The notes under the pieces are model-generated. The model made no database searches, had not been told where the DNA came from, and saw only the letters and a list, made by a program, of their open reading frames with translations. Of a DNA stretch of 64,000 bases, positions 18,965-51,739 are shown piece after piece. Made by a program: the position numbers and the translations under genes. Each line of letters opens with the position of its first letter. Positions within the stretch are counted from its first letter, which is position 1. This DNA is from an uncultured Bdellovibrio sp. GTDB lineage: Bacteria; Bdellovibrionota; Bdellovibrionia; Bdellovibrionales; Bdellovibrionaceae. The stretch spans positions 507,391 to 571,390 of the forward strand of contig CAWVRN010000001.1 of assembly GCA_963932905.1 (NCBI GenBank). Reading direction: 5' to 3'.

Positions 18965-19000
18965 AATTACACCTCCTATTTTTAATATTTTTTTTGTATT

Positions 19001-19104
19001 ACCCACCCAGTCTCGTCCCCCGGTTCCTGTCCACCTCCAATCAACTCGTTGGGTGGGGGTGGACAGGAAAAATCGTAGATTTAGGGGGACGAGACTGGGT
19101 GGGT
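19001..19104. repeat. 104-nt nested inverted repeat, candidate oriT
   Basis: 21-bp perfect outer arms 19001-19021/19084-19104; 16-bp inner arms 19024-19039/19054-19069 with one mismatch. Confidence 0.75.
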
Positions 19105-19135
19105 CGCATTTGTTTGATTTTGCTTTGTATTTTCA

Positions 19136-24133: not shown

Positions 24134-24147
24134 AATGACACCTCCTT

Positions 24148-25023: not shown

Positions 25024-25721
25024 TGGCCACCTCCGATTCTTGGCAGCCTTGTGTCCTTCGGAAGGCTGCCAAAGCCTCGGGATAGCCCCTGATAGTTTTC
25101 TTGGAAGTTTTGGGTCGCAAGTTTCTCTTTTCTAGTATCATAGGCCATATTTTGAGCCATGATTTTTAGCATTTGAGATTGCGTCCGCAGTAGCTGAGTC
25201 GAAACACCGATCAAAACCGCGAGTGCCTGATTCTGAAGTTTCCCGGCCCCTTGGGGACTAACCACTTGCGCATGAAACAAAATTTTATCTCGTTCGACAT
25301 CAACTTGGTCGGCGTAGTCGTACAAATTTCTGTTCATTGAAATGACTTCAGCAACGCTTTGATCTTGCGATCGCATAAGGTCTTCATCCATGCCGCTTGG
25401 AACAACTCCATACACCGATTGAAGAGCCCTTAGAACGGCATCAGCATTATTCAAATTACCATAGACCCCAGGGTTAAAATTGGGATTAATAATTCGAATC
25501 AAGTCAATGCCGCTCCTGACTCCCGCGTTTATGTCGCGCATGAGATCTAAAGTGTCCTTTCCGTTTTCAAGGACGTTTTTTAAAGTAATGACGGTCTGAA
25601 TGGCCTGAGCTAAGATTTGAGTCAGCACCACAACATCACCTCCGAAGAGGTCCGCTTTCGCGGATCTTGGGCCAATAAAAATTATCGCTGCAATTATCAT
25701 CGCAGAAAATTTATTTTTCAT
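25020..25721 (-). CDS. VirB5/TrbJ-like protein
   Basis: Signal peptide, helical Gln-rich, between virB4 and virB6. Confidence 0.6.
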   Translation of the reverse strand: MKNKFSAMIIAAIIFIGPRSAKADLFGGDVVVLTQILAQAIQTVITLKNVLENGKDTLDLMRDINAGVRSGIDLIRIINPNFNPGVYGNLNNADAVLRALQSVYGVVPSGMDEDLMRSQDQSVAEVISMNRNLYDYADQVDVERDKILFHAQVVSPQGAGKLQNQALAVLIGVSTQLLRTQSQMLKIMAQNMAYDTRKEKLATQNFQENYQGLSRGFGSLPKDTRLPRIGGGQ

Positions 25722-28189: not shown

Positions 28190-28509
28190 AATTCACCCCC
28201 TTTGTTAAATTTTCGATATTGAAAATCTTGTGAGTTGGCCGAGAAAACAGTTGGCGAGATAAGATGCTCAAAATAATGTTGCAGAAACTGATCAGGTTTT
28301 CCTTTCTTAAAGAAAAACAAAATCAAAAAGAGTCCAAGACTTGTTCCAAAAACCATTGGAATCTTCATCGAGGTCGATCCAAAAATTAAATTTTGAACTG
28401 ACAAATTTAAAAGCAAGATCAATACGTCTGACAGCTCCAGACCCAAAATTTTATTTTTTGTTTCTAGTGTTCTTGGGACCGATGAGGTCAATAGATTAAA
28501 ATCACTCAT
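28186..28509 (-). CDS. VirB3/TraL-like membrane protein
   Basis: Two TMs, KGKP motif, directly upstream of virB4. Confidence 0.65.
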   Translation of the reverse strand: MSDFNLLTSSVPRTLETKNKILGLELSDVLILLLNLSVQNLIFGSTSMKIPMVFGTSLGLFLILFFFKKGKPDQFLQHYFEHLISPTVFSANSQDFQYRKFNKGGEL

Positions 28510-28793
28510 TAGCGCACCGTCTGCGATATAAAATCAACAATCGCCTGTGCGCCAAAACCGATGATACTACCAAGAATCGCATACCACATATGCGTCTTGG
28601 CTTTTTCATTGCCGCTCATCAAACTAAAAGCCGCCCATGCAATTCCAATAATAGAAAGTGTCGGTAAAATAACTCGGGTCAATTTCGTCTGAATTCCCAT
28701 TAATGAAGACTCAACACTTGCAAGTCCAAGCTCTGGAACGATCAATAATGCTGCCGTCAGCATAAAAATAAATAAATATGATTTTCTGTTCAT
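28509..28793 (-). CDS. VirB2/TrbC-like pilin
   Basis: AGGAGG RBS, signal peptide plus two hydrophobic helices, IIGFGAQAIV. Confidence 0.8.
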   Translation of the reverse strand: MNRKSYLFIFMLTAALLIVPELGLASVESSLMGIQTKLTRVILPTLSIIGIAWAAFSLMSGNEKAKTHMWYAILGSIIGFGAQAIVDFISQTVR

Positions 28794-28818
28794 AAATGTA
28801 CCTCCTGTGTTAGTTGTT

Positions 28819-29232
28819 TTAAGATGCAAGGCTGTCCTCCAGTCCCTCTGATTTTTCCGGAAACAAGCAAAGGAAAATATTTTCTGGGATTAGCTGAATT
28901 CGTAGCGCAATAAAACTTCCAGCTAGTTTTCCTTCACCGATTCGATACCAGCTTGATTTCATTTCGCCTGTCGGTAATTGGTATTCTTCAAGACTGAGGA
29001 CAACGTACTTGGTATCATCATTGTCATCAGGCAGTATGAAATATTGAGTATTTGGGTGTGTGAATAGTTTAAGGCGAAATTTTTTAGATCCTGCTTTTAA
29101 ATACGCTACGCCAACGCTTTCACCTTCAATGACTTCACCTGATGAAGTCATTTCCCCAGTATAAACGCCATATTTTTCTGATTTACGAATAGGGATCACA
29201 TTACTAAATGAAAAATCGCTAGATTTATTCAT
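28819..29232 (-). CDS. Hypothetical beta-rich protein (DUF736-like ssDNA-binding candidate)
   Basis: Tandem VGVAY / WYRIGEG pattern, acidic tail. Confidence 0.4.
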   Translation of the reverse strand: MNKSSDFSFSNVIPIRKSEKYGVYTGEMTSSGEVIEGESVGVAYLKAGSKKFRLKLFTHPNTQYFILPDDNDDTKYVVLSLEEYQLPTGEMKSSWYRIGEGKLAGSFIALRIQLIPENIFLCLFPEKSEGLEDSLAS

Positions 29233-36221: not shown

Positions 36222-36884
36222 TCATAAACTTTCTTCGTCACTAACTTTTAGTTCTAGCCCCGAAATCAAAACATCAAATGTTGACTTAGTATCATCACCG
36301 TCGATACTCAGCCAGATTGCGATTGCTTCAATTGGTTTCTGAAATTGAAAATCATAGGCAAATGGACCCGAATGTTTTACTTCAGCAAAAAATTCTTCAT
36401 GAAATAAGTCTGATGCGGGATGTGTTCTGATTTTACCGACCTGCTGAGTGTTCTGCGTGACATTAAAAAAGTGAACGGAGTCAATACCAATTCCATCTTC
36501 AACTTGTTCATACAGATTCTTAACCCATTGAGCAGCAATCATTTTTTTGAAACCTGAAAGTTTCTTTTCGCCCGGAATTACAAACCCCAACCTTAAAGGA
36601 TAATCGTCAAATCCCTTTTCACCTTGCAGAGAGGGATTTGTGATCTTCGGTAGGCCTTTAAATTCGCCGCGGATCTTAAAACCTACAAATTTAGTTTTCG
36701 ATTTTAGAGGAAAGATGAGTGGACCAGCTGAATTTTTGACTTTAACATATAATCCACCGGGTGAGACTGCGGTTTCATTTTTAGGGACGCCAGAAAATTT
36801 TTCAGTTTTCCATTCTGTCAGATTATTTGTGGGAATTACGATAGCCGCAAATAAAAATGACTGGAAGCTCTTGGTCCAATTCAT
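36222..36884 (-). CDS. DUF3047-like exported protein
   Basis: NSAGPL, EKGFDDYPLR, IAIWLSIDGDDT motifs; last gene of ars operon. Confidence 0.6.
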   Translation of the reverse strand: MNWTKSFQSFLFAAIVIPTNNLTEWKTEKFSGVPKNETAVSPGGLYVKVKNSAGPLIFPLKSKTKFVGFKIRGEFKGLPKITNPSLQGEKGFDDYPLRLGFVIPGEKKLSGFKKMIAAQWVKNLYEQVEDGIGIDSVHFFNVTQNTQQVGKIRTHPASDLFHEEFFAEVKHSGPFAYDFQFQKPIEAIAIWLSIDGDDTKSTFDVLISGLELKVSDEESL

Positions 36885-37555
36885 TCAAGCGTCCTTATCC
36901 ACTCAATAAGGTTCATCTGCGGGTGTAGTAAAATATTTTTGTTTGAAGACAAACGCAAAAGATCCTCAACAGTGTCGATGTCGAAATTCTTTTCAATCTT
37001 TTCAATGCCACCAAATTTCTCGAGCGCGGATTCCAACTGCTGAGCGGTTTGAGCCGAGCTGTATTCAACTTGCGTCCAAACGTCTTTTTCTAACGGCTTG
37101 CTTCCTCCAAAAAAATAAAACCCGCCATCAAATGTCTCTCCAATTATGAATTTCTCGTTTCGCCATTTTTTCGTTAGATTGAGTCCATTGAGTAATTCAG
37201 AAGTCGGTATATGGGGCGAGTCTGCCCCCATAAAAGTCACATATTCATACTGATCTATAAGTTTATCGTAAACTGTGTGAAGTCGCTCTCCGAGGCTGCC
37301 TTCTCCTTGAAAAACCGTACCTAAATCCTTCCAGCGATTCGAATCAAGTCCTTGGAGCTCAGCTACCGCCCAGACTAGATCCAGTTGATCTTTCAGCTCG
37401 AATCTCACATGACATGCAAGTGCAGCAGTTGCATCGAGCGCTTGATTATAAAACTGAAGTGCTTTTGCTTTGCCGATACCTTGTGCAAGCCGCGTTTTCA
37501 CTGGCGAGAATTCAGGTGTTTTAACGAAAATAGCAAGAACTCCTTTAGTCCTCAT
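36881..37555 (-). CDS. DUF2064/TIGR04282 CofC-like transferase
   Basis: IFVKTP..VKTRLA, QGEGSLGERL, GADSP, DGGFY, DIDTVEDL. Confidence 0.88.
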   Translation of the reverse strand: MRTKGVLAIFVKTPEFSPVKTRLAQGIGKAKALQFYNQALDATAALACHVRFELKDQLDLVWAVAELQGLDSNRWKDLGTVFQGEGSLGERLHTVYDKLIDQYEYVTFMGADSPHIPTSELLNGLNLTKKWRNEKFIIGETFDGGFYFFGGSKPLEKDVWTQVEYSSAQTAQQLESALEKFGGIEKIEKNFDIDTVEDLLRLSSNKNILLHPQMNLIEWIRTLE

Positions 37556-38250
37556 CGTGACCTGCCATTCCGAATCAGTTTGATCAACTCTGGAAGAGCT
37601 TGACGAAAAGTTAGGACAATATGGCGAGACGTCGTTTGTGACCATCCCCGCAAAGCATATTTCCTAGAGCTGGTCTTCAAACCATTTCCCACGCAATGAA
37701 TAGGAATTCCTTTTTGATGGGCTTTCCAAATGAACAAATGGTCTTCACCGTAAGAAACGACTTCATCAAAACCACCTAAAGTCAAAAAAGTTCTTTTTGA
37801 AAGACAAAATCCCTGATCGCCAAATGGTAGGCGTAAAACTCGGGATCGAATCCATCCTCCGATTTCATTGAGAGACATTAACTTTGAACCATCGTTCAAA
37901 AACCTTAGATTAAAAAATAAAATTTGGCTTGAATATTTCACAATTGCCATCTTCAAATTCTTAATGCCAAGGGTTGATAATCTTGAGTCGCAGTGTAGAA
38001 AAAAGAGGCTTTCATTTTTTGCTTCTTTGGCACCCAGATTAAGTTGCTTAGCTCTGCCAGGGCTTGATTGAATCCAGCGACAAGTGGCGACAATTTTAAA
38101 ACGGGAAACTTCGCTTTCACAATCAGATTTTGTATTGTTCTGAAAAACAAAAATAATTTCATCATCATGATCAAGAGAACGCAAATCAGGGAGAAGACTC
38201 TTCCAAGACTCGTCTTTATTTCCTACTGGAATGATCACTGAAATTTCCAA
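37552..38250 (-). CDS. GT2 glycosyltransferase (TIGR04283-like)
   Basis: ISVIIP, GRAKQLNLGA, FLHCD, PFGDQG, GGF..ED, TSSRKY. Confidence 0.88.
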   Translation of the reverse strand: MEISVIIPVGNKDESWKSLLPDLRSLDHDDEIIFVFQNNTKSDCESEVSRFKIVATCRWIQSSPGRAKQLNLGAKEAKNESLFFLHCDSRLSTLGIKNLKMAIVKYSSQILFFNLRFLNDGSKLMSLNEIGGWIRSRVLRLPFGDQGFCLSKRTFLTLGGFDEVVSYGEDHLFIWKAHQKGIPIHCVGNGLKTSSRKYALRGWSQTTSRHIVLTFRQALPELIKLIRNGRSR

Positions 38251-38252
38251 AA

Positions 38253-39098
38253 TTATTCCTTTAGAAAGGCAAGAATTTGCCTTTGCTCATGAGACAAAAC
38301 AGATTCCTTAGTCATCACTGCAAATTTTAATGCTGAATGACAACTGCATTCAGTGTGATTGCTTTCGTGCTCAACGACTTTCTTTAACAAGGACTGCACT
38401 CGGCTAATGTTTTTTCCATAAAGTTCAATGACTTTTTCTACCGATGCATGTTGGGAGGGATCATCAAGCCAACAATCGTAATCTGTAGCGACAGCGATTG
38501 TGCAATAGCAGATCTGTGCCTCTCGAGCTAAGAAGACTTCAGGAACATTGGTCATTCCCACTAGGTCGCATCCTGCTTGACGTAAAAATAGACTCTCCGC
38601 TCGAGTTCCAAGTCTTGGCCCCTCAACGCATGCGTAAGTTTTCGATTCATGAATGCGGATATCGGTCTGTCGAGAACAATCTTGAATTGTTTTAGACAAA
38701 GTCGCACAGCTCGGCTGCGCTGTCGATATATGGGCTACCAGACCTTGACCAAAAAAGCTTCCAATTCTACGACCTCTAGTCCAATCAAAGTACTGAGAGG
38801 GCATTGCAAGGTCTCCAGGATGGACCTCTTCTCTTAAGCTTCCAACGGCTGAAACACTTATGATTTGTCTGACACCGACCGTTTTTAGAGCCCATATATT
38901 TGCTCTGTAATTAATTTCGGAAGGTAAAATTTGATGATCACTGCCGTGTCTTGGTAAAAAGGCTATTTTAATTCCTGAAAGCTCTCCTATTAGAATATTG
39001 GCAGAAGGCGCACCAAATGGTGTTTCGATACTGCGACTCGAAACATTACTGATTCCATCAATTTTATAGAGTCCTGTGCCGCCAATAATTCCGATCAT
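38253..39098 (-). CDS. mtnP: S-methyl-5'-thioadenosine phosphorylase family
   Basis: IGIIGGTG, LPRHG, NYRANIWAL, EGPR..TRAES, VGMT.VPE..LARE, TDYD. Confidence 0.93.
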   Translation of the reverse strand: MIGIIGGTGLYKIDGISNVSSRSIETPFGAPSANILIGELSGIKIAFLPRHGSDHQILPSEINYRANIWALKTVGVRQIISVSAVGSLREEVHPGDLAMPSQYFDWTRGRRIGSFFGQGLVAHISTAQPSCATLSKTIQDCSRQTDIRIHESKTYACVEGPRLGTRAESLFLRQAGCDLVGMTNVPEVFLAREAQICYCTIAVATDYDCWLDDPSQHASVEKVIELYGKNISRVQSLLKKVVEHESNHTECSCHSALKFAVMTKESVLSHEQRQILAFLKE

Positions 39099-39766
39099 GA
39101 TTTCTCCTTGAGCTGTGATTCGCCAAAAACAAAGGCTTCAATCGAAGCAAAAATGAAAACTGCAAGAATTTGTGCAGCGATGTACCCAGCAATGCTATGA
39201 GGGGCGATACCTGCAAAAGTATTTGTAAAAGATCTGGCAATAGTAACTGCCGGGTTTGCAAATGACGTTGAGGAAGTGAACCAATATGCACCCGTGATAT
39301 AACTTGCAACACCAAGAGCAGTTTTAGAAGGGTTAAACTTCACAAAGCCGACAATAGTAAAGAGAAGCCCGATTGTTGCAATAAATTCGGAGGCCATTTG
39401 AGGCAAACCATTTCGTGCGTGAGTTGATAATTGAAAGATGGGAACTTCAAAAATGAAATGCACGATGATGATTCCAAGAAGACTTCCAATTACTTGAGCC
39501 GCGATGTAAGAAATCCACAACGGAGTTTTAAGATCGCCACGAATTTTAAAATAGGTGCTTACGGCAGGATTAAAATGCGCGCCTGAAATCGGCCCAAATA
39601 TTGATATGAGAATAAAAAGACCGGCACCCGTAGCGATTGCGTTCGCCAACAACGCAATCGCAGCATTACCCGCAGCCAGCTTTTCGCCCATGATACCGGA
39701 ACCAACCACTATAATAATTAAAAACATTGTGCCGATAAACTCTGAAATAACCCGACGCTTTTCCAT
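39095..39766 (-). CDS. MIP aquaporin, arsenic-associated AqpS type
   Basis: SGAHFNPAVS and YWFTSSTSFANPAVT. Confidence 0.9.
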   Translation of the reverse strand: MEKRRVISEFIGTMFLIIIVVGSGIMGEKLAAGNAAIALLANAIATGAGLFILISIFGPISGAHFNPAVSTYFKIRGDLKTPLWISYIAAQVIGSLLGIIIVHFIFEVPIFQLSTHARNGLPQMASEFIATIGLLFTIVGFVKFNPSKTALGVASYITGAYWFTSSTSFANPAVTIARSFTNTFAGIAPHSIAGYIAAQILAVFIFASIEAFVFGESQLKEKS

Positions 39767-39779
39767 ATTGAATGTCCAC

Positions 39780-40829
39780 CTAACAGCATGCGCCCGCGCC
39801 AGCTGGAGAGCTAGCAACAGGAGTGGGACCACAATCGAACAAGCCCATGTGATTTGATTTTTCGCCGACGACTTTAAAGTGATCTTTGTACCAAGTCTTA
39901 GAAATCATATCCGACGTGTTTCCGCATACGAGCATCGGCTTACCAGTTTGAAAGAGGTGGTGGTCATCTAGCATAAATGAATGTGGACGATCCGGAACGG
40001 TTCCCAAGTAATAGGCCACCTGTCCAAAGTCCTCGCACCGGTCTTCTAAATCTAACTTGAAAGCTCTGAAAGTAATTGAAGTAAATTCGATCATTCCGAT
40101 TTTTTTTGTGATTTCCGGATCGTTCAATGAAATCTGGCTGCTTGAAATAACTCGAAAATCATTGCAGCCAATCTTCGCGAGAAGTCTTCGAAAATCTTCC
40201 TTGTAAAGTGCGCCACCAAGGCATTCCCCAAGAAGTGCCGGATCGGTCGCTAGATTTTGTGGAACTCTTCGGCTTGCAAAGACATCACTGAAATAGAGCT
40301 CGCCACCTGGCTTCAATACTCTAAAAATTTCCGAAAAAACCCGCGACTTGTTAGGTGACAGATTAGTCACACAATTTGAAACAACTAGATCTATTGAGTT
40401 TGACTTTACACCTGCTGTTTCAAGATCTTCGATGTATCCTTTTAAGAATTTAACGTTAGACTTTTGATATTTGAATTTCTCGCGGTGGTAATCGATATGT
40501 CTGTTGGCGACAGCTAACTGCTCGTCAGTCATATCAACACCGATAACCTGTCCGAGTTCTCCAACCAACTTAGACAGAATATAAACATCACGACCGGCAC
40601 CACAACCTAGATCAAGAACAGTCCGACCTTGAAGCGAAGGTGGAAATGGGCTGCCACAGCCGTAAAATTTCTCGTTTACCTCGGGGTGAATTTCGGAAAC
40701 AATCTTTCTAACCTCCATAGGCAGAGATTCGGCGGTACAGCACGCGGATGTCATTAGATCCGCGTTTGTTTTTAATACTTTCCCGTAATAATTTTTTACT
40801 GATTCTAAAGTTGAAAATTCATTGCTCAT
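39780..40829 (-). CDS. arsM: Arsenite S-adenosylmethionine methyltransferase
   Basis: TSACC, FYGCG, VLDLGCGAG, GVDMT, VSNCVTNL, LGECLGGA, CED, VCGNT, C-terminal CC. Confidence 0.9.
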   Translation of the reverse strand: MSNEFSTLESVKNYYGKVLKTNADLMTSACCTAESLPMEVRKIVSEIHPEVNEKFYGCGSPFPPSLQGRTVLDLGCGAGRDVYILSKLVGELGQVIGVDMTDEQLAVANRHIDYHREKFKYQKSNVKFLKGYIEDLETAGVKSNSIDLVVSNCVTNLSPNKSRVFSEIFRVLKPGGELYFSDVFASRRVPQNLATDPALLGECLGGALYKEDFRRLLAKIGCNDFRVISSSQISLNDPEITKKIGMIEFTSITFRAFKLDLEDRCEDFGQVAYYLGTVPDRPHSFMLDDHHLFQTGKPMLVCGNTSDMISKTWYKDHFKVVGEKSNHMGLFDCGPTPVASSPAGAGACC

Positions 40830-40854
40830 GTTTTTTCCTTTCAAAAAATATTCG

Positions 40855-41814
40855 CTATACCAATGCGCCACCACAAGAGCTTCCGGCTCCGGCAGTGCAG
40901 GCGTAACAGTGGTTTGCAAAAGTAATTGGTTTATTTTCTAGTTCATTAAATGAATTCAAGTCCCATACTGTTTTTCGTCCAGCGCCAAGAGGCAGTTCGA
41001 GCATTTGATTGAAGTCGCAATCAAATATTTCACCGTCCCAAGCTACCGACACAAGACTTCGGCACATGATTCCCTTAGCTGCTGTGGGATTAAAACTATT
41101 TGCCAGTAACTCCATATATTCTGAGAGTTTGCCCGAGCGTTCGAGGTCTTTAAGAAAGCGTTTAATAGGCATATTTGTGATGGTGTATAGTTCATTAAAT
41201 TCGATATCAAACAACTCTTTCAGCTCAGCTTTATAATCCTGTTTTAATTTTTCCTGCGAGGGCGGCAAAAATGGACCCGTCGGATTGTAGACAAGATCCA
41301 GTTTCAGATTTGAATCTGTTTTTCCATATCCCAATTTATTGAAAAGCTTGAGCGCCTCGATACTTTTATCGAAAACACCTCGGCCACGTTGCTGTTCAAC
41401 ATTCTTTTTGGAATAACAAGGCAGCGAGGCCACAATATGAACTCCATTTTCTTTTAGAAAATAAGCGGTCTCTTCCTGACCTGGCTCGTAAAGAACCGTC
41501 AAATTACAGCGATCAATAACTTGTTTATTTAGCTTTCGGGCGGCAATAACTAAACGACGAAAATGTGGATTGAGTTCTGGTGCGCCACCCGTTAGATCAA
41601 CCGTGTGAATCGTCTCCGAATTCTCGAGAAGATCAATAATTCGATCGACAGTAGCTGACTCCATATTTTCAGTTCGCTTAGGACCAGCTTCAACATGGCA
41701 ATGATGGCAAGCCAAATTACACAGACGGCCAATATTTATTTGCAATATTTCAACAGGTGTCCGATTTAATTTTAGACCAGCTGTTGATAAAGATTCAGTA
41801 AATGTTTTCATCAC
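40855..41814 (-). CDS. arsS: Arsenosugar biosynthesis radical SAM protein (DUF3641)
   Basis: CNLACHHC, DLTGGAPE, ASLPCY, NMPIKRF, DCDFNQML, HCYACTAGAGSSCGGAL. Confidence 0.93.
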   Translation of the reverse strand: MMKTFTESLSTAGLKLNRTPVEILQINIGRLCNLACHHCHVEAGPKRTENMESATVDRIIDLLENSETIHTVDLTGGAPELNPHFRRLVIAARKLNKQVIDRCNLTVLYEPGQEETAYFLKENGVHIVASLPCYSKKNVEQQRGRGVFDKSIEALKLFNKLGYGKTDSNLKLDLVYNPTGPFLPPSQEKLKQDYKAELKELFDIEFNELYTITNMPIKRFLKDLERSGKLSEYMELLANSFNPTAAKGIMCRSLVSVAWDGEIFDCDFNQMLELPLGAGRKTVWDLNSFNELENKPITFANHCYACTAGAGSSCGGALV

Positions 41815-42011: not shown

Positions 42012-42485
42012 ATGAAGTTAAACGAAGTCTATAATCTTATTGAGGCCGAAAGAGGTGGTCTTGCTGCGATTCATACCTCTTTCTCAGAATTCCCAGAAGG
42101 AATTATGGCCCATTACCAATTCTACAAATCAATCATGCTGCAAGATGGGCTACCGCTTGAAAGAGCAGACAGGGAGTATTTGGCTGTGGAAGTAAGCAAA
42201 GCCAATGCATGTCCGTACTGCATCGCACATCATGCCGAAGCATTAAAAAACACCAAGACTAAGGTCGATAAACACAGGTCCCAGGTGCTTGCGTCACTTG
42301 CCGATACGTTAACAAGGACGCCATGGAAAACTTCGGTTTTACATTCTGAGTTTTTGGGAAATGGTTTTTCGGAAGGTCAATGGCAACATGCTATTATGGT
42401 CGTCTCATACTTCAACTTTGTTAACCGTTGTGCTCACGCGAAAGGCTTAGAGATAGAGTCTGACTATGAATCAACCTGTTTGTAA
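42012..42485 (+). CDS. AhpD/CMD-like peroxidase-related protein (YnjA-like)
   Basis: RE.LAV.VS..NACPYCIAHH, YFNFVNR. Confidence 0.85.
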   Translation: MKLNEVYNLIEAERGGLAAIHTSFSEFPEGIMAHYQFYKSIMLQDGLPLERADREYLAVEVSKANACPYCIAHHAEALKNTKTKVDKHRSQVLASLADTLTRTPWKTSVLHSEFLGNGFSEGQWQHAIMVVSYFNFVNRCAHAKGLEIESDYESTCL

Positions 42486-42518: not shown

Positions 42519-43148
42519 TCATTCAATTAAAACTTTATGGGAATCAACGGGTACATCCTCGACATCATGGGTTACGATTATGCAGGGAATTGCTCGTTGT
42601 TTCATTTCCATAAAAACTAGATCACGAAAATTCACCCTTAACGACTTATCCAGTTTCGAAAATGGCTCATCCAACAAGATCAATTCGGGGTTTGACAAAA
42701 CTGCCCTTAATACGCTGACTCGTGAACGTTGGCCACCAGACAATGTGGATGGCATACGATCAAAAAAATTAACCAGACCTGCATCTTTTAATGACTTTTC
42801 AATAATTAATTTTCGAGCCAATCGTTCTCGCGGTTCTTTCATGCCAAACAATAAATTTTCTCCAACACTAAAATGTGGAAACAGTAAATCATCTTGGTAA
42901 AGAATGCCGACTTTGCGCTTCGAAATTTCTAGCAGATCAATTCTTTTATCCTCCAGATAAAGCTCTCCAGACGCTTGAATTGTCGGAGCCAAGGACCCAA
43001 CAATATAGCTAAGCAAGCTACTTTTTCCGCTACCACTGGCTCCCATCACAGCCAATACTTCACCAGGTTTTACTTCAAATGAGAGATTTTGAAAAAGTGA
43101 TTTATCCTTTATGCTTATTGAAACATTGATAGCTCTAAATACCGACAT
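42519..43148 (-). CDS. ABC ATPase, YnjD-like
   Basis: GASGSGKS, QDDLLFPH, LSGGQ, LLDEPFSKLD, VTHD. Confidence 0.9.
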   Translation of the reverse strand: MSVFRAINVSISIKDKSLFQNLSFEVKPGEVLAVMGASGSGKSSLLSYIVGSLAPTIQASGELYLEDKRIDLLEISKRKVGILYQDDLLFPHFSVGENLLFGMKEPRERLARKLIIEKSLKDAGLVNFFDRMPSTLSGGQRSRVSVLRAVLSNPELILLDEPFSKLDKSLRVNFRDLVFMEMKQRAIPCIIVTHDVEDVPVDSHKVLIE

Positions 43149-44741
43149 TTAAACCTTCTCTTTCGCAAGTTTTCCGGAAACAAAAAATACAATGGCTGGA
43201 ATTAAAATTTGTAGGATTCCGAAGACACCCATCCACTTTCTGTTTTCTCCACTAGCAGCAACGACCATTTGTGTCGTTAAAGTTTCAACTCGACCGCCTC
43301 CGATGAAAACAGTGGGTAAGTATTGAGCTATACTGACCGCAAATCCGACTGAAAACGCTGTAAGAATCCCACTCAGTAACATACGAACTCTAATAGTAAG
43401 AAAAAACTTTAAAACACTTTGCCCAAGGCTTAAAGAAGTGACTTTGTATCGTTCATCAAACTTCATAAATTGGCTTTTCAAAATAATAAACACATAAGGA
43501 AAAACCAAGAGCAAGTGAACATAAAACACTGCTACTAACGAGCTTGGTTTAAAGCTTGAGGATAGAAACACATCAAATCCAAATAATAAAGGAACGATAG
43601 GAAAAACTGGTACAAATAAAATAGGAATCATTAGCCAATCTTTAGTCGCCCTTCTGTCCCACTCAAGCCATATCAATCCCACACAAGTCGCCATCATACT
43701 TGATAAAAATGCCAAGATGACTGTTGTCGATATTTGAGAGAAAATACTTTTTATACCATAAACGAAATTTTCATATGTGAAACTCGAAGGAATGATATTA
43801 GGAAAAACCCATTCGTCTGCAACTGCCCATAAACCAAGAACCACTAAAGGTACAAATAGAAGAAAAAAATAAAATCCCAGAATAGTTTTCCGAAAACAAA
43901 TAGACTCAGACCTAATTGGCCACCTTAAGCGAATCTTCAACGCAAAAGAGAAAACCTTGCCGATTAATTCCCAAATTAAAATGACTAAAACCAGCATAAC
44001 TAAAATGTGTAAGCTTCCCAAAACACTTTTCATTTGGTTATCCACATCTGCACTCTGAAAAAACTCCCACAAAACAACGGAAAATGGTGGTGGATTTGTG
44101 GGAGCTAAAACCATTGCCAAATCAACAACACTGAGCGAATAAGCAATTACAATCCATATCGGATAGCGCAGTGACTGCAATAGCCTGGGCCATAGAACAT
44201 AACTCCAATATGTAAAGTCAGTATGACCAAAGCTTTGTGAAACAATCAATTCTGGTTCATTTTTTTTATCAGTTATTGACGGCAGCAAAACAAAAACTAA
44301 AAATAGACTTTCCTTAAGCGCAAGCGTGAGTGAAAAACTCAATGCCCAAGGATCTCGATCCATTCCATAAAATGGAATATCAGAAAAAATTGACCAAACT
44401 CTTGAAAGAAGACCCGATGGTGAAATTAAAAAAAGAACGCCAGAAAAAAACGCCAAATGTGGAACAGATAGAAAAAAGGAAATAAATCGCTGAGGGTTGT
44501 GATTTCGAAAACTAAATATTGCATAGCCGACAAAAAAAGAAATTAAAACACCCACAACAGTGCTCACGACTCCTACTGAAAGAGATACAAGACTTGCCGC
44601 CTTTAAATAGGGTGTCCAGTAGGTTGCCAGCGCCTGGGGATCAGAAAATAAATGAATCACAGAGCCAGAGAAATAAAATAATGATGCAAACAATGGAAGA
44701 AAAAATATAATTAGCACTGATAACCGTGAAAAAGTCCGCAT
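43149..44741 (-). CDS. ABC permease, YnjC-like
   Basis: Two permease halves; VPHLAF, YSLSVVD, PTNPP, FAVSIAQYLPT. Confidence 0.85.
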   Translation of the reverse strand: MRTFSRLSVLIIFFLPLFASLFYFSGSVIHLFSDPQALATYWTPYLKAASLVSLSVGVVSTVVGVLISFFVGYAIFSFRNHNPQRFISFFLSVPHLAFFSGVLFLISPSGLLSRVWSIFSDIPFYGMDRDPWALSFSLTLALKESLFLVFVLLPSITDKKNEPELIVSQSFGHTDFTYWSYVLWPRLLQSLRYPIWIVIAYSLSVVDLAMVLAPTNPPPFSVVLWEFFQSADVDNQMKSVLGSLHILVMLVLVILIWELIGKVFSFALKIRLRWPIRSESICFRKTILGFYFFLLFVPLVVLGLWAVADEWVFPNIIPSSFTYENFVYGIKSIFSQISTTVILAFLSSMMATCVGLIWLEWDRRATKDWLMIPILFVPVFPIVPLLFGFDVFLSSSFKPSSLVAVFYVHLLLVFPYVFIILKSQFMKFDERYKVTSLSLGQSVLKFFLTIRVRMLLSGILTAFSVGFAVSIAQYLPTVFIGGGRVETLTTQMVVAASGENRKWMGVFGILQILIPAIVFFVSGKLAKEKV

Positions 44742-45871
44742 TAATCTTTCGTTCCAGTCCCGTACCGCTTAAGCCATTCATCTTGAAGATACTTGACCCA
44801 GCAAGCATGTGGTTCTGGGATAAGAGGCCCCTTTAAGACTTTTAACGGAAATTTAGAACGATCAGATTCACTGAGCTTTCCTATGTCGAGCACAGTCGGG
44901 TCGCCCCAGAGATCAATATCAGATTTGGAAATTTGAGCTTGGATTGAAATTAGGTGATTTATCCAAAGTAGCGCAGCGTCCTTATTCTTTGCATTAAAAG
45001 GAATCGACAAAAAGTGAACGTTTCCGATACCACCTTTCTTAAATGTTAGTGACTCAGAATTTTTTGGAATTTCCTTTTTCTTTACCAATGAATCCGACTC
45101 CATCGGATTAAAACTCAACGAATATAATATTTCTTTATCTAAAAGCATTTGATGCATTTTTTGTACTGAAAGTGGAAACGCAGTTCCCTTGCGCCATAAT
45201 TGGGGGTGAAATTTATCCAAATAGGTCCATAGCGGCTTTGATAATTTTTCCATGTCGACATTATCACAGGATTTCTGAAACTCTTGATGTTTCTTAGATA
45301 AATCCATAAGTATTTGCTTCAAAAAAGTAACGCCATGAAATTGCGGAGGTTTGACATAAGTCATCTTACCTGGTGTCTTTTTAGCCAATTCTAGAAGTTC
45401 CAAAGCTGATGTCGGAAGTGATGAAGTACGGTCTTTATCCCAAATAAAAACAAATTGGGCTTTTCCCCATGGAATTTCAAATCCCTCGACGGGTACATTG
45501 AAATCAAACTTATAGTCGGGATCTTCAGAATTAATGTTTTTGTAATTTGCAACTTTGGTAGAAATTGGTCCGAAAAGCAGTCCTTGATTTTTTAGCGCCG
45601 CAAAGTTTTCACCATTGACCCAGAGAACATCGACAGAACCTTGACTTAGGTTTTTGGCGGATTTTTCTGCTGCAATTTTTTTTATGACCGGTTGGTAGTC
45701 TGACACCTTTACATGAATAACTTTGATCCCAGTTGATTTTTCAAATTCGGCGCTTTGATTTTGAATGTACTGGTTAATTTTCTCGTTACCTGCCCAGGCA
45801 TTAAAGTAGACAACTTTTTCGGCAGCAAAAATATTTAAAGATAAAAAAATTAAAAAAAATAGAAAATGCAT
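44741..45871 (-). CDS. ABC substrate-binding protein, YnjB-like
   Basis: VYFNAWAG, WVNGENF, PWGKAQF, GNVHFLSIPFNA, WGDPTV. Confidence 0.88.
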   Translation of the reverse strand: MHFLFFLIFLSLNIFAAEKVVYFNAWAGNEKINQYIQNQSAEFEKSTGIKVIHVKVSDYQPVIKKIAAEKSAKNLSQGSVDVLWVNGENFAALKNQGLLFGPISTKVANYKNINSEDPDYKFDFNVPVEGFEIPWGKAQFVFIWDKDRTSSLPTSALELLELAKKTPGKMTYVKPPQFHGVTFLKQILMDLSKKHQEFQKSCDNVDMEKLSKPLWTYLDKFHPQLWRKGTAFPLSVQKMHQMLLDKEILYSLSFNPMESDSLVKKKEIPKNSESLTFKKGGIGNVHFLSIPFNAKNKDAALLWINHLISIQAQISKSDIDLWGDPTVLDIGKLSESDRSKFPLKVLKGPLIPEPHACWVKYLQDEWLKRYGTGTKD

Positions 45872-45872
45872 T

Positions 45873-46469
45873 TTACAACTCTCTTTTTGCTAAAATTAAC
45901 CGTGCTATAACAGTGACAATCAGAATTAAAATCCAAACGCGGGCTAAGAATATAATATATTCCGGAAAAATGAGAAACAGCGTATAGGCAATTCCAGTTT
46001 CGCCACCTTCAGCGATCCCAGACGCTAGTCGAAGTCCGCGATTGTTTTGAGTTGGAATATTCATTTTATCTTGCAGATTACCTAATGACAAAGCTCCCGT
46101 GATACAAAGTACATAAAGCAAAAGTATAATGGACCACAAACTTTGTAATTCCGGAAATGCAAAGTTAAAGCCGATAATCATTGCGGAGTAGGCAGCCATA
46201 TCAGATAAAATATCAAGTTGAGCACCAAAGTGACTACTTTGATTCGTTTTTCGAGCATAAATTCCATCGGTACCATCTAAAAGTCTTCCGAGCCACCAAA
46301 CTGCAATAGCCGGCACGAACATTTCTCTTGCGACAAGGAAGGCTGCGATAATTCCAAATCCTAATCCCAAAAGGGTCACAGAATTTGGAGTCAATCCTAG
46401 CGCTTTATAAAGCCGAAGCAGTGGATCAACGAATTTTGGTAGTTTTGCGCGAAATGGTTCATCAATCAT
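45873..46469 (-). CDS. CDP-alcohol phosphatidyltransferase, YnjF-like
   Basis: TPNSVT, DGTDGIYAR..S.FGA.LD..SD, EGGET. Confidence 0.9.
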   Translation of the reverse strand: MIDEPFRAKLPKFVDPLLRLYKALGLTPNSVTLLGLGFGIIAAFLVAREMFVPAIAVWWLGRLLDGTDGIYARKTNQSSHFGAQLDILSDMAAYSAMIIGFNFAFPELQSLWSIILLLYVLCITGALSLGNLQDKMNIPTQNNRGLRLASGIAEGGETGIAYTLFLIFPEYIIFLARVWILILIVTVIARLILAKREL

Positions 46470-46552: not shown

Positions 46553-48700
46553 CTAGGTTCTTCGCCACGCATGGAACTTCCTTAAAATATTTAGAGCAAA
46601 CTGCGGCGCGTTTTGTTTTTTCCAAACGCCTGCGGCGTATTTATTGGCCTCACTCAATGTGGGATAAATATGAATTGTCCCAAGTATTTTATTAAGTCCC
46701 AACCCATACTTCATAGCTGTTACGTATTCGGCAATGATGTCGCCTGCGTGATGACCGACAATTGTGACACCTAGAATTCGATCACTTCCAGGAACAGTGA
46801 GCACTTTGACAAATCCGTGGGCTTCGCTGTCAGCAATGGCCCGATCAAGGTCATCTATTCCGTACTTCGTCATCTCAAAATCAATATTTTTTTCTTTTGC
46901 TTCAATTTCGTTAAGTCCAACTCGTGCAACTTCAGGATCGGTGAATGTGCACCAAGGGATTACTCGGTAATCCACTTTGAAGGATTTAAAGGGACTGAAC
47001 AGTGCATTCACTGCCACATACCAAGCTTGGTGAGCTGCTGTGTGAGTAAATTGATACGGTCCCGTGACATCGCCACAAACATAAATATTTGGAAAATTGG
47101 TTGTCCGTAAAAATTCATCCGCGATAACAGCTCCTCGTCCAGATATCTCAACACCAAGTTCTTCCAACCCAAATCCGGTCACGTTAGCGCGTCGACCCAA
47201 CGCTAATAAAATTTGATCAAACTCAATGGCAACTTCTTTTCCAGCTGTTTCACAAATTAATCGCGTCAAGCCCGAGGTACTCTCAATTCGAAGGGCCTTG
47301 TGAGATGTTAAAACTTGTACGCCTTCATTTCGAAAAGAGTCTGTCACGACTTCAGACACATCGACATCTTCCCTAGCCATAATTCGATTCGACATTTCTA
47401 CTAAAGTGACATGAGTTCCAAGCCGAGCAAAAGACTGCGCTAACTCACAGCCGATGGGGCCACCACCTAATACAACGAGTTTCTTAGGTTGCTCGCGAAG
47501 ATTCCAAATATTGTCCGAAGTGAGCGGCCTAATTAATTCGAGGCCCGGGATCTTGGGAACAAGTGGTCGTGCGCCCGTCGCAACGACAATATTTTTTGTC
47601 GTCAATACTTTCCCATTCACCTTCACTTCATAGGGCGAGAGAATTTGCGCTTCACCCGTGATGCATTCGACGCCAAGACTTGAGTAACGTTCTATGGAAT
47701 CATGTGGTTCGATTTCTTGAATTACTTTTTGAACTCGCTCCATAACTTTTGAAAACTGAAGCTTGGAGGCTATGGGCTCCAATCCAAATTCTCTGGATCG
47801 TCGAAAATAATTATATATTTTCGACGTCCGAATGAGGGCTTTACTTGGAACGCACCCTGTATTGAGGCAATCGCCGCCCATTTTGTGCTTTTCAATCAGA
47901 GCGACTTTGGCTTTCACCGCTGACGCAATATAAGCAGAGACAAGTCCGGCAGAACCGCCGCCAATTACAACCATGTTATATTCGAACTTTGATGGTTTTT
48001 TATATTTTCGAAGATGTTTTCGTGATTTGAAATATCCAATCAACCATTTCGAAAGAAGTGGCAAAATTCCAAGAAGTGAAAATGAAATCAAAAGACCGGG
48101 ACTTAAAATTCCTTTAAGGCTATCAATTTTTGAGATTTCGGTTCCTGCATTAACATAGACAAACGTACCCGGTATCATCCCAATTTGACTAACTAAAATA
48201 AACCTCCACACAGAAAGTTGAGTCAGACCCATGACAAGGTTCACTAGAAAAAAGGGAAACGCTGGAATAAGTCTCAATGTGAATAAATAGAATGATCCTT
48301 CATTTTTTAACCCTTGATTGATCGCGCTCATTCGTTCCCGAAAACGACGTTCGGCAGATTGTCTAAACAGATATCGCGCGCCCAAGAATGAAAGTGTCGC
48401 CCCTAGTGTGGAGGCTACTGAGGCTATGATTGTACCATAAAACAGTCCGAATATTGCTCCAGATGCTAAAGTTAAGATCGTTGCACCCGGGATCGAAAGG
48501 GCCGTCACGATGACATACCCAAGACCAAAAATGAGGCTTACCAAAATAGGATGGTTTGAAAATTGAGCGTTCAAAAGCTCCTGATTCTTTTTTAGGCTAG
48601 CTAGCGTCAAATATGATCCGGCGCCAGTCGTAAAGTAAATAGTAACTAGCAACAGAATCAATGCTACTAAAAGGAATCTCATATTGATATGTCGCCGCAT
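46553..48700 (-). CDS. TVP38/DedA membrane domain fused to MerA/Lpd-like FAD disulfide oxidoreductase
   Basis: LRLIPAFPFFLVN VTT motif; GGGSAG, GGDCLNTGCVPSK, GGGPIG, HIYPT. Confidence 0.9.
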   Translation of the reverse strand: MRRHINMRFLLVALILLLVTIYFTTGAGSYLTLASLKKNQELLNAQFSNHPILVSLIFGLGYVIVTALSIPGATILTLASGAIFGLFYGTIIASVASTLGATLSFLGARYLFRQSAERRFRERMSAINQGLKNEGSFYLFTLRLIPAFPFFLVNLVMGLTQLSVWRFILVSQIGMIPGTFVYVNAGTEISKIDSLKGILSPGLLISFSLLGILPLLSKWLIGYFKSRKHLRKYKKPSKFEYNMVVIGGGSAGLVSAYIASAVKAKVALIEKHKMGGDCLNTGCVPSKALIRTSKIYNYFRRSREFGLEPIASKLQFSKVMERVQKVIQEIEPHDSIERYSSLGVECITGEAQILSPYEVKVNGKVLTTKNIVVATGARPLVPKIPGLELIRPLTSDNIWNLREQPKKLVVLGGGPIGCELAQSFARLGTHVTLVEMSNRIMAREDVDVSEVVTDSFRNEGVQVLTSHKALRIESTSGLTRLICETAGKEVAIEFDQILLALGRRANVTGFGLEELGVEISGRGAVIADEFLRTTNFPNIYVCGDVTGPYQFTHTAAHQAWYVAVNALFSPFKSFKVDYRVIPWCTFTDPEVARVGLNEIEAKEKNIDFEMTKYGIDDLDRAIADSEAHGFVKVLTVPGSDRILGVTIVGHHAGDIIAEYVTAMKYGLGLNKILGTIHIYPTLSEANKYAAGVWKKQNAPQFALNILRKFHAWRRT

Positions 48701-48888: not shown

Positions 48889-49665
48889 ATGATCAATTCA
48901 ATAAAATCAGTATTTTTAGCAGGCACCTTTGCTCTTTTTGGGTGGAATCAAGCCATGGCCTTTGATCACAGTCATAGTGGTTGGAATGAAATCGTAAAGA
49001 GATCAGTAACCTGGACTCATTCAGCATCAGCGGTGAATTATAAAGATCTTAAGTTAAATTCTAAAGCCCTCGATCAATATCTTAAAGAACTTTCCAACGT
49101 TAAGAGTTCCGATTTTGAACGTTGGACTCGCGACCAACAGCTCGCATTTTTAATCAATGCGTACAATGCATGGACCGTAAAATTGATTCTAGAAAACTAT
49201 CCAGTGAAATCAATCAAGGACATTGGTGGGATCTTTTCAAGTCCCTGGAAGCAGAAATTCTTTAAACTTTTCGATGCAGAAACCAGTCTTGATTGGATCG
49301 AGCATGAAAAAGTGAGGCCCACGTACAAAGAGCCCCGAATTCATTTTGCCCTTGTATGCGCTTCTATTGGATGCCCCGGACTTCGCGCTGAGGCCTTCGT
49401 AGCTGAGAAATTGAATCAACAACTTGATGATTCCACAAAGCAATTTTTAAATGATTCTTCAAGAAATCATTATGACCTAGCAAATAAAGAATTAGCCTTA
49501 AGCTCCATCTTCAAGTGGTATAAAGACGACTTTGTGAAAGCAAAAGGCTCTGTCCAAGCTTTTATTTTTCCTTATATGGAATCACTCAAAAGTGAGAATT
49601 TAAGTTCCGTTCAAAAGTTTTCCATCAAATATCTAGAATACAACTGGTCTTTAAATGAAAAGTAA
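48889..49665 (+). CDS. DUF547 exported protein
   Basis: AFLINAYNA, EPRIHFALVCASIGCP, LSSIFKWY..DF, YNWSLN. Confidence 0.9.
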   Translation: MINSIKSVFLAGTFALFGWNQAMAFDHSHSGWNEIVKRSVTWTHSASAVNYKDLKLNSKALDQYLKELSNVKSSDFERWTRDQQLAFLINAYNAWTVKLILENYPVKSIKDIGGIFSSPWKQKFFKLFDAETSLDWIEHEKVRPTYKEPRIHFALVCASIGCPGLRAEAFVAEKLNQQLDDSTKQFLNDSSRNHYDLANKELALSSIFKWYKDDFVKAKGSVQAFIFPYMESLKSENLSSVQKFSIKYLEYNWSLNEK

Positions 49666-50734
49666 AACCGTAGTTCTAGTTGGAAGTGGTCACGCTCATC
49701 TTGAAATATTAAAAGCACTGACGTTTAAAGAGATTGTAGATCACCGATTTATTCTCATATCGCCAAGTCGCCAGACCTACTATTCCGGCTTAATCCCGTG
49801 CCTCATTAAGGGAGAAATCGAAGAGAGAGGTTTAACAATCAATTCTGCGGATTTTGCAGAATCTAAAGGATTTAAATTTATTCAAGACGAAGTTCAATCG
49901 GTGGATCAAACAAACAAAGCATTGACATTGAAGTCAGGTGATAAAATAGATTTTGATTTGCTGTCGATCAACGTCGGTGGGACTCCGACTTTAATCCCAT
50001 CAGATGCTCCTTTCAAAACAGTCTATTTGCGGCCATTCGATGAATTCATGCCGAAATGGAGGGAAGTTCAAAGAATTTGTAGTGCCTGCGTAAATCCTAG
50101 ATTTGTCGTTGTGGGTGGTGGGGCTGCAGCCGTGGAAGTTGCGGCCAGCCTAAGAATACGACTTAATAAAAATCAGGCAAAAAATAGCGAAGTTCATATA
50201 GTATCTAAAGGCGCAAGGCTCTGCGAGAACTACTCCGAAAAAATTTCGGAACAAATCAAACAATCACTTTTAAAAAGAGGTATCAAAATTCATCTCAATG
50301 AACCAGTGAGCCAAATTCATCAAAAGACCATCATGTTACGTCAGAGTGGAGATTTACAGTTCGATTCCATTTTTATAGTCACACCCACGCAGCCATCCGA
50401 AATATTCTCTGGGAAAATGGATTCTAAACTGCGACTATCTCGATGTATCTTCGCAGCCGGAGATGGAACTGAAATGGCCGATTATCCAAATCTTCCTAGA
50501 TCCGGGGTAATCGCCGTTCATCAAGGGCGTCATCTTGTCAAAAACATCAGAAATTCACTACTAGATTTAGAGCTGTTTGACTTCAAATTTAGAGTTAAGC
50601 ACCTTAATATACTCATCACCGGAGAAAATTCAGCCCTCCTCGTGTGGGGAAATTTTAGCTTAGAAGGCAAGTGGCCACTTAGACTCAAAAATTGGATAGA
50701 TCAGCGGTATATTTCGAGCTTTGAAAAGAATTAA
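49655..50734 (+). CDS. FAD-dependent oxidoreductase (similar to N-terminal domain of SelD fusions)
   Basis: VLVGSGHAH, YSGLIP, VGGGAAAVE, FAAGD, PRSGVIAVHQG, LKNWIDQRY. Confidence 0.8.
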   Translation: MKSKTVVLVGSGHAHLEILKALTFKEIVDHRFILISPSRQTYYSGLIPCLIKGEIEERGLTINSADFAESKGFKFIQDEVQSVDQTNKALTLKSGDKIDFDLLSINVGGTPTLIPSDAPFKTVYLRPFDEFMPKWREVQRICSACVNPRFVVVGGGAAAVEVAASLRIRLNKNQAKNSEVHIVSKGARLCENYSEKISEQIKQSLLKRGIKIHLNEPVSQIHQKTIMLRQSGDLQFDSIFIVTPTQPSEIFSGKMDSKLRLSRCIFAAGDGTEMADYPNLPRSGVIAVHQGRHLVKNIRNSLLDLELFDFKFRVKHLNILITGENSALLVWGNFSLEGKWPLRLKNWIDQRYISSFEKN

Positions 50735-51208: not shown

Positions 51209-51739
51209 CTACTTAAGTTCAGTATTAACTTCTGGCTGAGTTAAATGATTTATATAGTTTGATAAAGTCTTAATCGAAACAATCAGCATCACTTCCAAAA
51301 TATTTTGCTGAGTAAAACCTGATTTTAGGAATTTCTCTTGATCTGCCAAAGTTAATCGTCCGCGCTCTTTAACAACCAGGCGTACAAAATCAACTAGCGC
51401 CTTATCTTTAGAATTCGCAATCTCTTTTCCTTCAGATAATGCAAGTAGAGTCTCTAAATTTGCACCTTTCATTTTTCCAATGGCCTTATGAGCTTTAATG
51501 CAAAATTCGCATTTATTTTCAACACTGACAGCCATCAATGCGACCTGCTGATCAGAAACTGAGAAACTAGTCTTTGATACAAGTTCATTAAGTTGCAAAT
51601 AAGCTTCAATCGTCGTTGGCGCTTCAGCCATGTATTCAAACATCGTTGGCACAAATCCGAACGCAGCTTTAATCCCTGTTAAAAGTGGTCGACTTGCAGC
51701 TGGTGCTGATTCAAGTGTGTGTTTTATAAATAATCCCAT
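51209..51739 (-). CDS. CMD/AhpD family protein
   Basis: FGFVP, N.CEFCIKAH, KTLSNYINH. Confidence 0.85.
   Translation of the reverse strand: MGLFIKHTLESAPAASRPLLTGIKAAFGFVPTMFEYMAEAPTTIEAYLQLNELVSKTSFSVSDQQVALMAVSVENKCEFCIKAHKAIGKMKGANLETLLALSEGKEIANSKDKALVDFVRLVVKERGRLTLADQEKFLKSGFTQQNILEVMLIVSIKTLSNYINHLTQPEVNTELK

Follow-up and report, generated by a model that had tools for sequence, protein, structure and literature searches.

Among the main forms in which arsenic occurs in aquatic food webs are arsenosugars and arsenosugar phospholipids, and a single bacterial locus raises the question of how such molecules are completed: once the radical S-adenosylmethionine (SAM) enzyme ArsS has joined methylated arsenic to an adenosyl group, which proteins remove the adenine, activate the sugar and pass it to an aglycone? 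The locus lies in a window (the whole stretch of DNA that was analysed, 64,000 nucleotides long) from the genome of an uncultured Bdellovibrio sp., an assembly of 4.55 Mb in 58 contigs in which the window corresponds to G000:C1:507391-571390. Here, seven minus-strand open reading frames (ORFs) at 36222-41814 encode, in order, ArsS, the As(III) methyltransferase ArsM, a MIP-family channel, a phosphorylase of the 5'-methylthioadenosine (MTA) phosphorylase family (MTAP), a small family 2 glycosyltransferase (GT2), a DUF2064 protein and a distant DUF3047-like protein, hereafter ORF7. Weighing the comparisons set out below, we come down somewhat on the side of a horizontally acquired, arsenosugar-type biosynthetic island in which a chain of MTAP, DUF2064 and GT2 would take over after ArsS.

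In the portion of the source on which we draw, ArsS is described as transferring the 5'-deoxyadenosyl group of SAM to dimethylarsenite, giving 5'-deoxy-5'-dimethylarsinoyl-adenosine (DDMAA) (PMC13598754). In the pathway that we propose, ArsM would convert As(III) to dimethylarsenite and ArsS would carry out this transfer to form DDMAA; the imported MTAP would then use phosphate to split DDMAA into adenine and 5-deoxy-5-dimethylarsinoyl-alpha-ribose-1-phosphate, the DUF2064 protein would convert this arsenoribose-1-phosphate to a nucleoside diphosphate (NDP)-sugar, and GT2, as an inverting enzyme, would hand the arsenoribose to an alcohol acceptor such as glycerol to yield a beta-riboside. A cytidine diphosphate (CDP)-alcohol phosphatidyltransferase encoded nearby may, as an optional last step, form an arsenosugar phospholipid. 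Strong homology to characterised enzymes is what shows the ArsM and ArsS steps as far as DDMAA, whilst the steps after ArsS, that of the phosphorylase included, we infer from comparison. Our literature search, which covered few subscription journals, returned enzymes assigned to the ArsM and ArsS steps only and nothing after DDMAA; within that coverage we found no paper on DUF2064, nor any publication that connects arsenosugar synthesis with a phosphorylase, with DUF2064 or with a CDP-alcohol transferase.

The operon and its first two enzymes

An ORF check of the window recovers all seven genes, on the minus strand, at the limits stated for them. With the most plausible start codons, the six junctions measure 25, 13, -4, 2, -4 and -4 nt, and a Shine-Dalgarno-like sequence precedes each chosen start: the operon is real, and its seven genes are translationally coupled. 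The first-pass annotation had called a coupled operon of arsS, arsM, an aquaporin, MTAP, GT2 and DUF2064, and both the family matches and these junctions bear it out. Scans of 35500-42600 for promoters and terminators returned either sites no commoner than in shuffled sequence or nothing usable.

The assignment of ArsS (40855..41811, minus strand; likely ATG at 41811, preceded by an AGAGGAG Shine-Dalgarno sequence) is firm, as the protein scores 457.5 bits against TIGR04167, whose curated equivalog cut-off is 300, and matches both Radical_SAM (PF04055) and the C-terminal DUF3641 domain (PF12345). Its translation contains a CX3CX2C cluster motif, read as C-NLA-C-HH-C. ArsM (39780..40829, minus strand; likely ATG at 40829) aligns over its full length with the solved structures 5evj (E 1.9e-113) and 4fr0 (E 3e-101) and shares with solved ArsM four cysteine-bearing motifs, SAC, GCG, SNCV and GECL, whose cysteines are presumably those that bind arsenic. 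It falls under all NCBIfam ArsM cut-offs (NF008823, 186 against 263 bits; NF038099, 106.8 against 400).

The operon has no arsR, arsC or acr3, as had been claimed. The argument built on that absence, namely that it favours biosynthesis over detoxification, is less secure: the same genome has a classical Acr3 and an ArsC-like gene of the low-molecular-weight protein tyrosine phosphatase type on contig C3, and because these are present elsewhere, their absence from the operon is weak evidence.

The phosphorylase and its partner transferases

If the operon phosphorylase has a role after ArsS, one would like to see it set apart from the housekeeping enzyme of the same family, and this genome offers that comparison. 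The operon MTAP (38253..39098, minus strand, its ATG overlapping the stop codon of the MIP gene) scores 294.6 bits against TIGR01694, above the equivalog cut-off of 274.85, and its phosphate, ribose and base motifs align with those of solved MTAPs. It is one of two MTAP-family genes in the genome, which share 42% identity and are accompanied by one purine nucleoside phosphorylase (PNP); the other copy lies at C1:294398-295123. All nine congeners examined (9/9) have a single MTAP, the orthologue of this non-operon copy, and in a tree of 41 MTAP sequences the host copy sits among those of its congeners (95% identity). For the operon copy, identity to its counterparts in operons of other genera and families is 91-94% (91% for G038, a genome from another family). 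By these comparisons, the operon MTAP is an imported second copy and the host MTAP is vertically inherited, which makes the latter an internal control within the genome.

The imported type keeps characteristic company. In the same tree, 13 of 15 arsS-linked MTAPs, from several phyla, fall in one clade (SH-aLRT 98); the other two fall among free MTAPs of myxobacteria, suggesting that MTAP was recruited to arsS loci a second time. We then considered neighbourhoods from both sides. In a census of arsS loci, limited to the best 80 of at least 584 ArsS relatives, MTAP directly follows arsS or arsS-arsM at 11, from Bdellovibrionota, Myxococcota, Alpha- and Gammaproteobacteria; amongst same-order relatives this holds for 3 of 8 arsS loci. 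In the reverse direction, starting from the 30 best matches to the operon MTAP across 401 genomes of the phylum, 21 of the 30 loci have arsS, arsM, GT2 or DUF2064 within 1.5 kb, and arsS occurs in 25 of these 30 genomes but in only 42 of the 371 others, ratios that overstate how strong the association is, since kin are not independent. In eight genomes MTAP and arsS lie on different contigs, and at seven of these eight MTAP loci the full trio of MTAP, GT2 and DUF2064 is nonetheless present; at the eighth (G352, L168), only GT2 and MTAP are seen. As the trio persists where arsS is on another contig, the partners to which MTAP is primarily tied are GT2 and DUF2064, with the radical SAM enzyme coming second.

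Does the phosphorylase itself bear a mark of a different substrate? All members of the 13-member clade, the operon MTAP included, carry Leu163-Gly164 in the GPR-F-S loop of the substrate pocket, where the other MTAPs compared have Phe (28/28) followed by Ser (27/28). The clade also has Thr126, Arg162, Phe189, Tyr or Phe at 227 and, usually, an inserted Pro214. Transferred to RsfP (4GLF) by HMMER alignment, Leu163 corresponds to F179 and Gly164 to S180 (loop P177-R182), Thr126 to M139 in loop V134-A140 of the neighbouring subunit, and Tyr227 to L242. In the part of the 4GLF description that we consulted, those RsfP residues form walls of, or contacts within, a cleft equated with the MTA pocket (PMC3561333). 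It would be tempting to read Leu-Gly as the signature of a new, arsenic specificity, but clade loci that lack arsenic genes or arsS do not allow that reading. Because members occur away from arsenic genes, in genomes without arsS and beside mtnA, the clade probably still handles MTA.

The two transferases make up the rest of the chain. GT2 (37552..38250, minus strand) scores 165 bits against TIGR04283, under the cut-off of 182 yet its best family match, and 23.7 bits against PF00535. The DUF2064 protein, a CofC-like nucleotidyltransferase-fold protein (36881..37555, minus strand, its ATG overlapping the GT2 stop), passes PF09837 (43.7 bits, cut-off 25.8) and reaches 117.5 bits against TIGR04282, where the cut-off is 134. 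Each is found at 28 of the 80 arsS loci, and at six of the 80 they are fused to one another, in both gene orders. With 139 bits as the lower limit, a TIGR04283-like gene is present in eight of the nine arsS-positive relatives and in none of the 32 arsS-negative ones; a GT2 is found in all nine of the former. Both families are already named as arsenosugar enzymes in NCBIfam, hence this part of the proposal is not new, and NCBI's 'arsenosugar biosynthesis glycosyltransferase' names appear in published genome annotation (PMC13077682). A second, lower-scoring TIGR04283-like GT2 (96-103 bits) was also seen in two relatives, at G044:C3:133948-134646, G046:C43:21516-22223 and G046:C77:2029-2736; in G044 and on C77 of G046 it is followed by two small ORFs, with a CDP-alcohol transferase near.

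Several observations weigh against the chain of MTAP, DUF2064 and GT2. No MTAP adjoins arsS at 69 of the 80 loci, and L008, the closest of the 80 by ArsS and itself from a Bdellovibrionales metagenome-assembled genome, lacks MTAP yet keeps GT2, DUF2064 and ORF7. Around MTAP-less arsS loci, a search for an alternative adenine-removing enzyme amongst same-strand ORFs of 200-420 aa within 3.5 kb (150 of 156 ORFs, six of L084 being left out) found no other recurrent PNP_UDP_1 gene, and PF01048 is not amongst the families common to at least two ORFs around these 69 loci. The linked MTAP is the sole MTAP-family gene in 8 of the 10 other genomes examined, where it could be a housekeeping enzyme; 5 of the 30 MTAP-clade genomes are without arsS, 9 of the 30 loci are without arsenic genes within 1.5 kb, and Leu-Gly is present at 28 of these 30 loci. 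Moreover, mtnA adjoins one Leu-Gly copy (L169) and also one Phe-Gly copy (L184). Both GT2 and DUF2064 score under their NCBIfam cut-offs, and NDP-ribofuranose donors are unusual.

Many of these points could be gathered into a simpler explanation, in which the operon enzyme is an ordinary MTA/5'-deoxyadenosine phosphorylase that clears inhibitory 5'-deoxyadenosine from abortive SAM cleavage by ArsS, or serves as the cell's MTAP, whilst adenine is lost from DDMAA through another enzyme or not at all. We judge this unlikely, though it is the main rival. It would explain why the protein passes the MTAP equivalog cut-off, why clade members live without arsS and in one case beside mtnA, why the linked copy is so often the only MTAP, and why most arsS loci do without it. 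Yet the host here is already served by an MTAP that it inherited vertically, and the phosphorylase stays joined to the transferases in the eight genomes where arsS is on another contig (DUF2064 being seen in seven and only GT2 in G352); by-product salvage is weakened by both. Productive turnover of ArsS, furthermore, would yield DDMAA and methionine, not 5'-deoxyadenosine, as we reason in part from the portion of the ArsS source cited above (PMC13598754).

A different objection, to which we give less credence, holds that GT2 and DUF2064 do not use NDP-arsenoribose. Perhaps GT2 transglycosylates directly from DDMAA or ribose-1-phosphate; perhaps DUF2064 activates the acceptor instead, for example as a CDP-alcohol then used by the CDP-alcohol transferase; or the pair may belong to a membrane-lipid system together with the DedA-MerA, DUF547 and DUF3047 genes. 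The transferases leave room for such variants: the sole solved relative of DUF2064, 3cgx (E 2e-11), is an uncharacterised structural-genomics entry, GT2 matches solved GT2 enzymes weakly, lower-scoring TIGR04283-like genes occur in 4 of 32 arsS-negative relatives, and DedA-MerA, DUF547, CDP-alcohol transferase and fatty-acid-hydroxylase-family genes recur around the clusters. On the other side stand the conserved MTAP-GT2-DUF2064 order with its overlapping stop and start codons, fusions that join exactly GT2 and DUF2064, and a CofC-like fold, as would suit an enzyme activating a phosphate monoester. With an alpha-NDP-sugar as donor, an inverting GT2 would give the beta-riboside, which is the form found in arsenosugars.

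That the locus is a detoxification device only, with the remaining genes lacking any arsenic role, is highly improbable: ArsM and a MIP channel alone could conceivably methylate arsenic and export the product, but ArsS passes its equivalog cut-off, Acr3 and ArsC serve detoxification elsewhere in the genome, and the seven coupled genes move jointly, at 89% identity between genera.

Our preference thus remains with the chain from phosphorylase through DUF2064 to GT2, which the first-pass annotation had also put forward. The placement of MTAP, its status as an imported copy and the GT2-DUF2064 fusions fit that proposal; the many arsS loci without MTAP, and the clade members without arsS, do not.

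Mobility, the wider island and a possible lipid product

How did the operon reach this genome? It directly follows an integrative and conjugative element (ICE)-like backbone at 16226..28829, which comprises a tRNA-Met (16226-16302), a large serine recombinase (16281-18101) that overlaps the tRNA with its 3' end, and, at 20238-28829, type IV secretion genes for VirD4/TraG, TrbI, VirB9/CagX, VirB4/TraC and a TrbC pilin. The window therefore contains two hallmarks of an ICE, a recombinase beside a tRNA and a type IV secretion gene set. The stretch 26017-35752 is colinear with a contig of a congener at 72-76% identity, and the block of secretion, kinase and sigma-54-regulator genes is common to congeners up to ~36060; from there to ~50150 nothing similar was found in them. 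Neither ArsS nor the cluster was found in any of nine same-genus genomes (0/9; 83-99% complete), whilst ArsS is present in 2 of 15 genomes from the family's other genera and 6 of 16 other genomes of the order. In G220, a genome of another genus, all seven operon genes recur, 89.3% identical across 5641 nt, as do the AhpD-like, DedA-MerA, DUF547 and oxidoreductase genes that flank them, and in G038 the locus is colinear at 74-83%, missing the MIP gene only.

From such comparisons the island is clearly transferable, and it is probable that it was placed inside the ICE as cargo. No recombinase or secretion homologues were found within ~20 kb of the copies in G220 and G096, so the ICE backbone is not common to them; no repeat of the tRNA-Met 3' end, as an attachment repeat, was found in the assembly. 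The earlier description of the operon as mobile is thus upheld by its context and patchy distribution; the far end of the element lies off the contig, as C1 stops at the end of the window. The last stretch of C1, 63466-64000, consists of short multi-copy repeats (80-97% identity) that turn up on several contigs both here and in congeners, and these probably caused the assembly break. Relatives of the ICE-like backbone occur several times in the genome and in congeners, at 65-76% identity. The segment 50153-54586, which holds part of an oxidoreductase, an AhpD-like protein, an alpha/beta hydrolase, an AraC regulator and a sigma factor, is duplicated on contig C41 of this assembly at 80-90% identity.

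What is new in the wider island is a rare CDP-alcohol phosphatidyltransferase (198 aa; 45873..46469, minus strand) that accompanies these clusters, and its presence suggests that the end product is an arsenosugar phospholipid. It scores 49.7 bits against PF01066 (cut-off 22) and has the complete D-G-x2-A-R-x8-G-x3-D-x3-D signature of that family, whilst none of the NCBIfam equivalog cut-offs is reached (the best score is 59 bits, where 180 are required). At an E-value of at most 1e-30, its subfamily is found in only 10 of the 401 phylum genomes. Of those ten, seven have arsS, against a base rate of 67/401, and in each of these seven both genes are on one contig, 3.8-13.6 kb from each other. 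In G220 the transferase is the eighth gene of the operon, overlapping the end of ORF7; in G209 and G108 it lies between PHO4 and a fatty-acid-hydroxylase-family gene, with DUF2064 ahead of PHO4. Its other neighbours include DedA-MerA, a concentrative nucleoside transporter and an inosine-uridine (IU) nucleoside hydrolase. Could the transferase be a synthase that uses CDP-diacylglycerol and a glycerol arsenoriboside, such that the island makes arsenosugar phospholipids and not just water-soluble arsenosugars? We put this forward tentatively, as possible rather than probable; against it, in three of the ten genomes with the subfamily no arsS was found.

Were the phospholipid proposal true, heterotrophic and partly predatory bacteria, spreading the island on mobile elements, would be a source of arsenolipids in natural waters. 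Arsenosugar phospholipids are abundant amongst marine arsenolipids, and bacteria have been proposed as a source of them; that non-photosynthetic bacteria are producers is raised as a hypothesis in the part of a preprint available to us (10.1101/2021.03.22.436501). Beside the transferase, a concentrative nucleoside transporter is encoded at three loci (L199, L198 and L200, in G425, G341 and G338, respectively) and an inosine-uridine nucleoside hydrolase at one (L153, in G044), a hint that an arsenic nucleoside may be transported or hydrolysed.

Two further operon genes deserve comment. The MIP-family channel (223 aa; 39095..39766, minus strand) scores 85.1 bits against PF00230 (cut-off 25) and has two NPA boxes, with NPAV occurring twice; it may admit As(OH)3, glycerol or both. 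Its gene is a 718-bp insertion relative to the colinear, MIP-less locus of G038 (L120), is also present in the operon of G220, and has no homologue that we could find in the 80 arsS loci. Amongst the 150 neighbour ORFs scanned, six that adjoin arsS encode PHO4-family phosphate transporters (L008:8859-10001 and five other arsS loci). The route by which arsenic enters seems to differ from cluster to cluster, PiT there and MIP here.

ORF7 (36222..36884, minus strand, its ATG overlapping the DUF2064 stop codon) belongs to a family of ~100 mostly unnamed proteins. The earlier DUF3047 label holds for its relatives more than for the protein itself: ORF7 has no Pfam or NCBIfam match of its own, even at E 10, whilst 13 of 22 sampled family members match PF11249 weakly (best E 1.6e-5), and its ESM Atlas feature score is 0.98 to clusters in which ~21% of members carry that domain. 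The AF2 model is a beta-sandwich (pLDDT 91.5) resembling carbohydrate-binding modules in a generic way (Foldseek TM 0.3-0.45; VIA-align Z 9-10.5), and this protein may bind the sugar. The fold searches led to no catalytic assignment.

Around the operon, several genes may serve thiol and redox chemistry. An AhpD/CMD-like protein with a CPYC motif (42012..42485, plus strand; PF02627; TIGR01926 at 64 bits, under the cut-off) is encoded divergently from arsS and has homologues in the G046, G044 and G220 islands, and a second AhpD/CMD-like protein (51209..51739, minus strand) has homologues in those of G046, G044, G038 and G220. A DedA/VTT membrane domain is fused to a MerA-like flavoprotein disulfide reductase (46553..48700, minus strand), with homologues at 31 of the 80 arsS loci and at 5 of the 8 arsS loci of relatives. 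On the plus strand, at 48889..50734, a DUF547 protein (48889-49665) and a TIGR03169-like pyridine nucleotide-disulfide oxidoreductase (49655-50734) are kept beside the island in G038, G046, G044 and G220. The DedA-MerA fusion, the second disulfide oxidoreductase and the two CxxC AhpD-like proteins would plausibly keep arsenic or thiols reduced. An ABC importer occupies 42519..45871 on the minus strand, with its ATPase at 42519-43148, permease at 43149-44741 and binding protein at 44741-45871 (NF008633, 412.8 bits); the module adjoins the CDP-alcohol transferase in G044, and the G220 island is without it.

Further off in the window, a sulfur or persulfide-type cluster at 55611-60173 encodes a DsrE-like protein, a rhodanese-metallo-beta-lactamase fusion, a major facilitator superfamily (MFS) transporter, a fusion of an ArsR-type helix-turn-helix (HTH) domain with rhodanese and a class V aminotransferase. 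A three-gene set for PrkA, DUF444 and SpoVR-like proteins lies at 4283-8970, outside the mobile region.

Comparison with known systems

Taken together, this compact, mobile and coupled locus supplies candidates for adenine removal, sugar activation, aglycone transfer and lipid head-group attachment. How does it compare with what has been described? The closest reference is the ArsM/ArsS pathway of Synechocystis sp. PCC 6803, reportedly the subject of papers by Xue in 2019 and Cheng in 2021, together with the corresponding NCBIfam set (TIGR04167, TIGR04282 and TIGR04283). The island shares its first two enzymes with that reference, as well as GT2 and DUF2064, although its own GT2, DUF2064 and ArsM fall under the NCBIfam cut-offs. 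To this set the window adds the MTAP-family phosphorylase, the MIP channel, the DUF3047-like protein and the linked CDP-alcohol phosphatidyltransferase. Unlike Synechocystis, moreover, the host is a non-photosynthetic, Bdellovibrionales-type bacterium in which the cluster sits beside an ICE backbone, and the locus thereby points to non-photosynthetic bacteria as producers.

The CDP-alcohol transferase has PF01066 and its signature motif in common with the CDP-diacylglycerol-dependent head-group synthases PgsA, PssA and phosphatidylinositol phosphate (PIP) synthase, but it lies under their equivalog cut-offs and forms a rare subfamily found mostly beside arsenosugar genes. Similarly, the operon MTAP is like the MTAP of methionine salvage (MtnP; 4glf, 1v4n, 1cb0) in passing TIGR01694 and in its aligned phosphate, ribose and base motifs, whilst it differs in being a second copy inside an arsenic operon, with Leu-Gly in place of Phe-Ser and with two more loops of the pocket altered (Thr, Tyr and Phe).

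The logic of the proposed steps also has precedents outside arsenic metabolism. In the formation of the hopanoid side chain by HpnH and HpnG, and in the futalosine route with MqnE and MTAN, a radical SAM enzyme performs an adenosylation and an enzyme of the PNP_UDP_1 superfamily then removes the adenine. The island would follow the same scheme of radical adenosylation and subsequent adenine removal; what would set it apart is an arsenic substrate, a phosphorylase of the trimeric MTAP type and, downstream of it, a nucleotidyltransferase-fold protein and a glycosyltransferase that may carry the released arsenoribose onwards.

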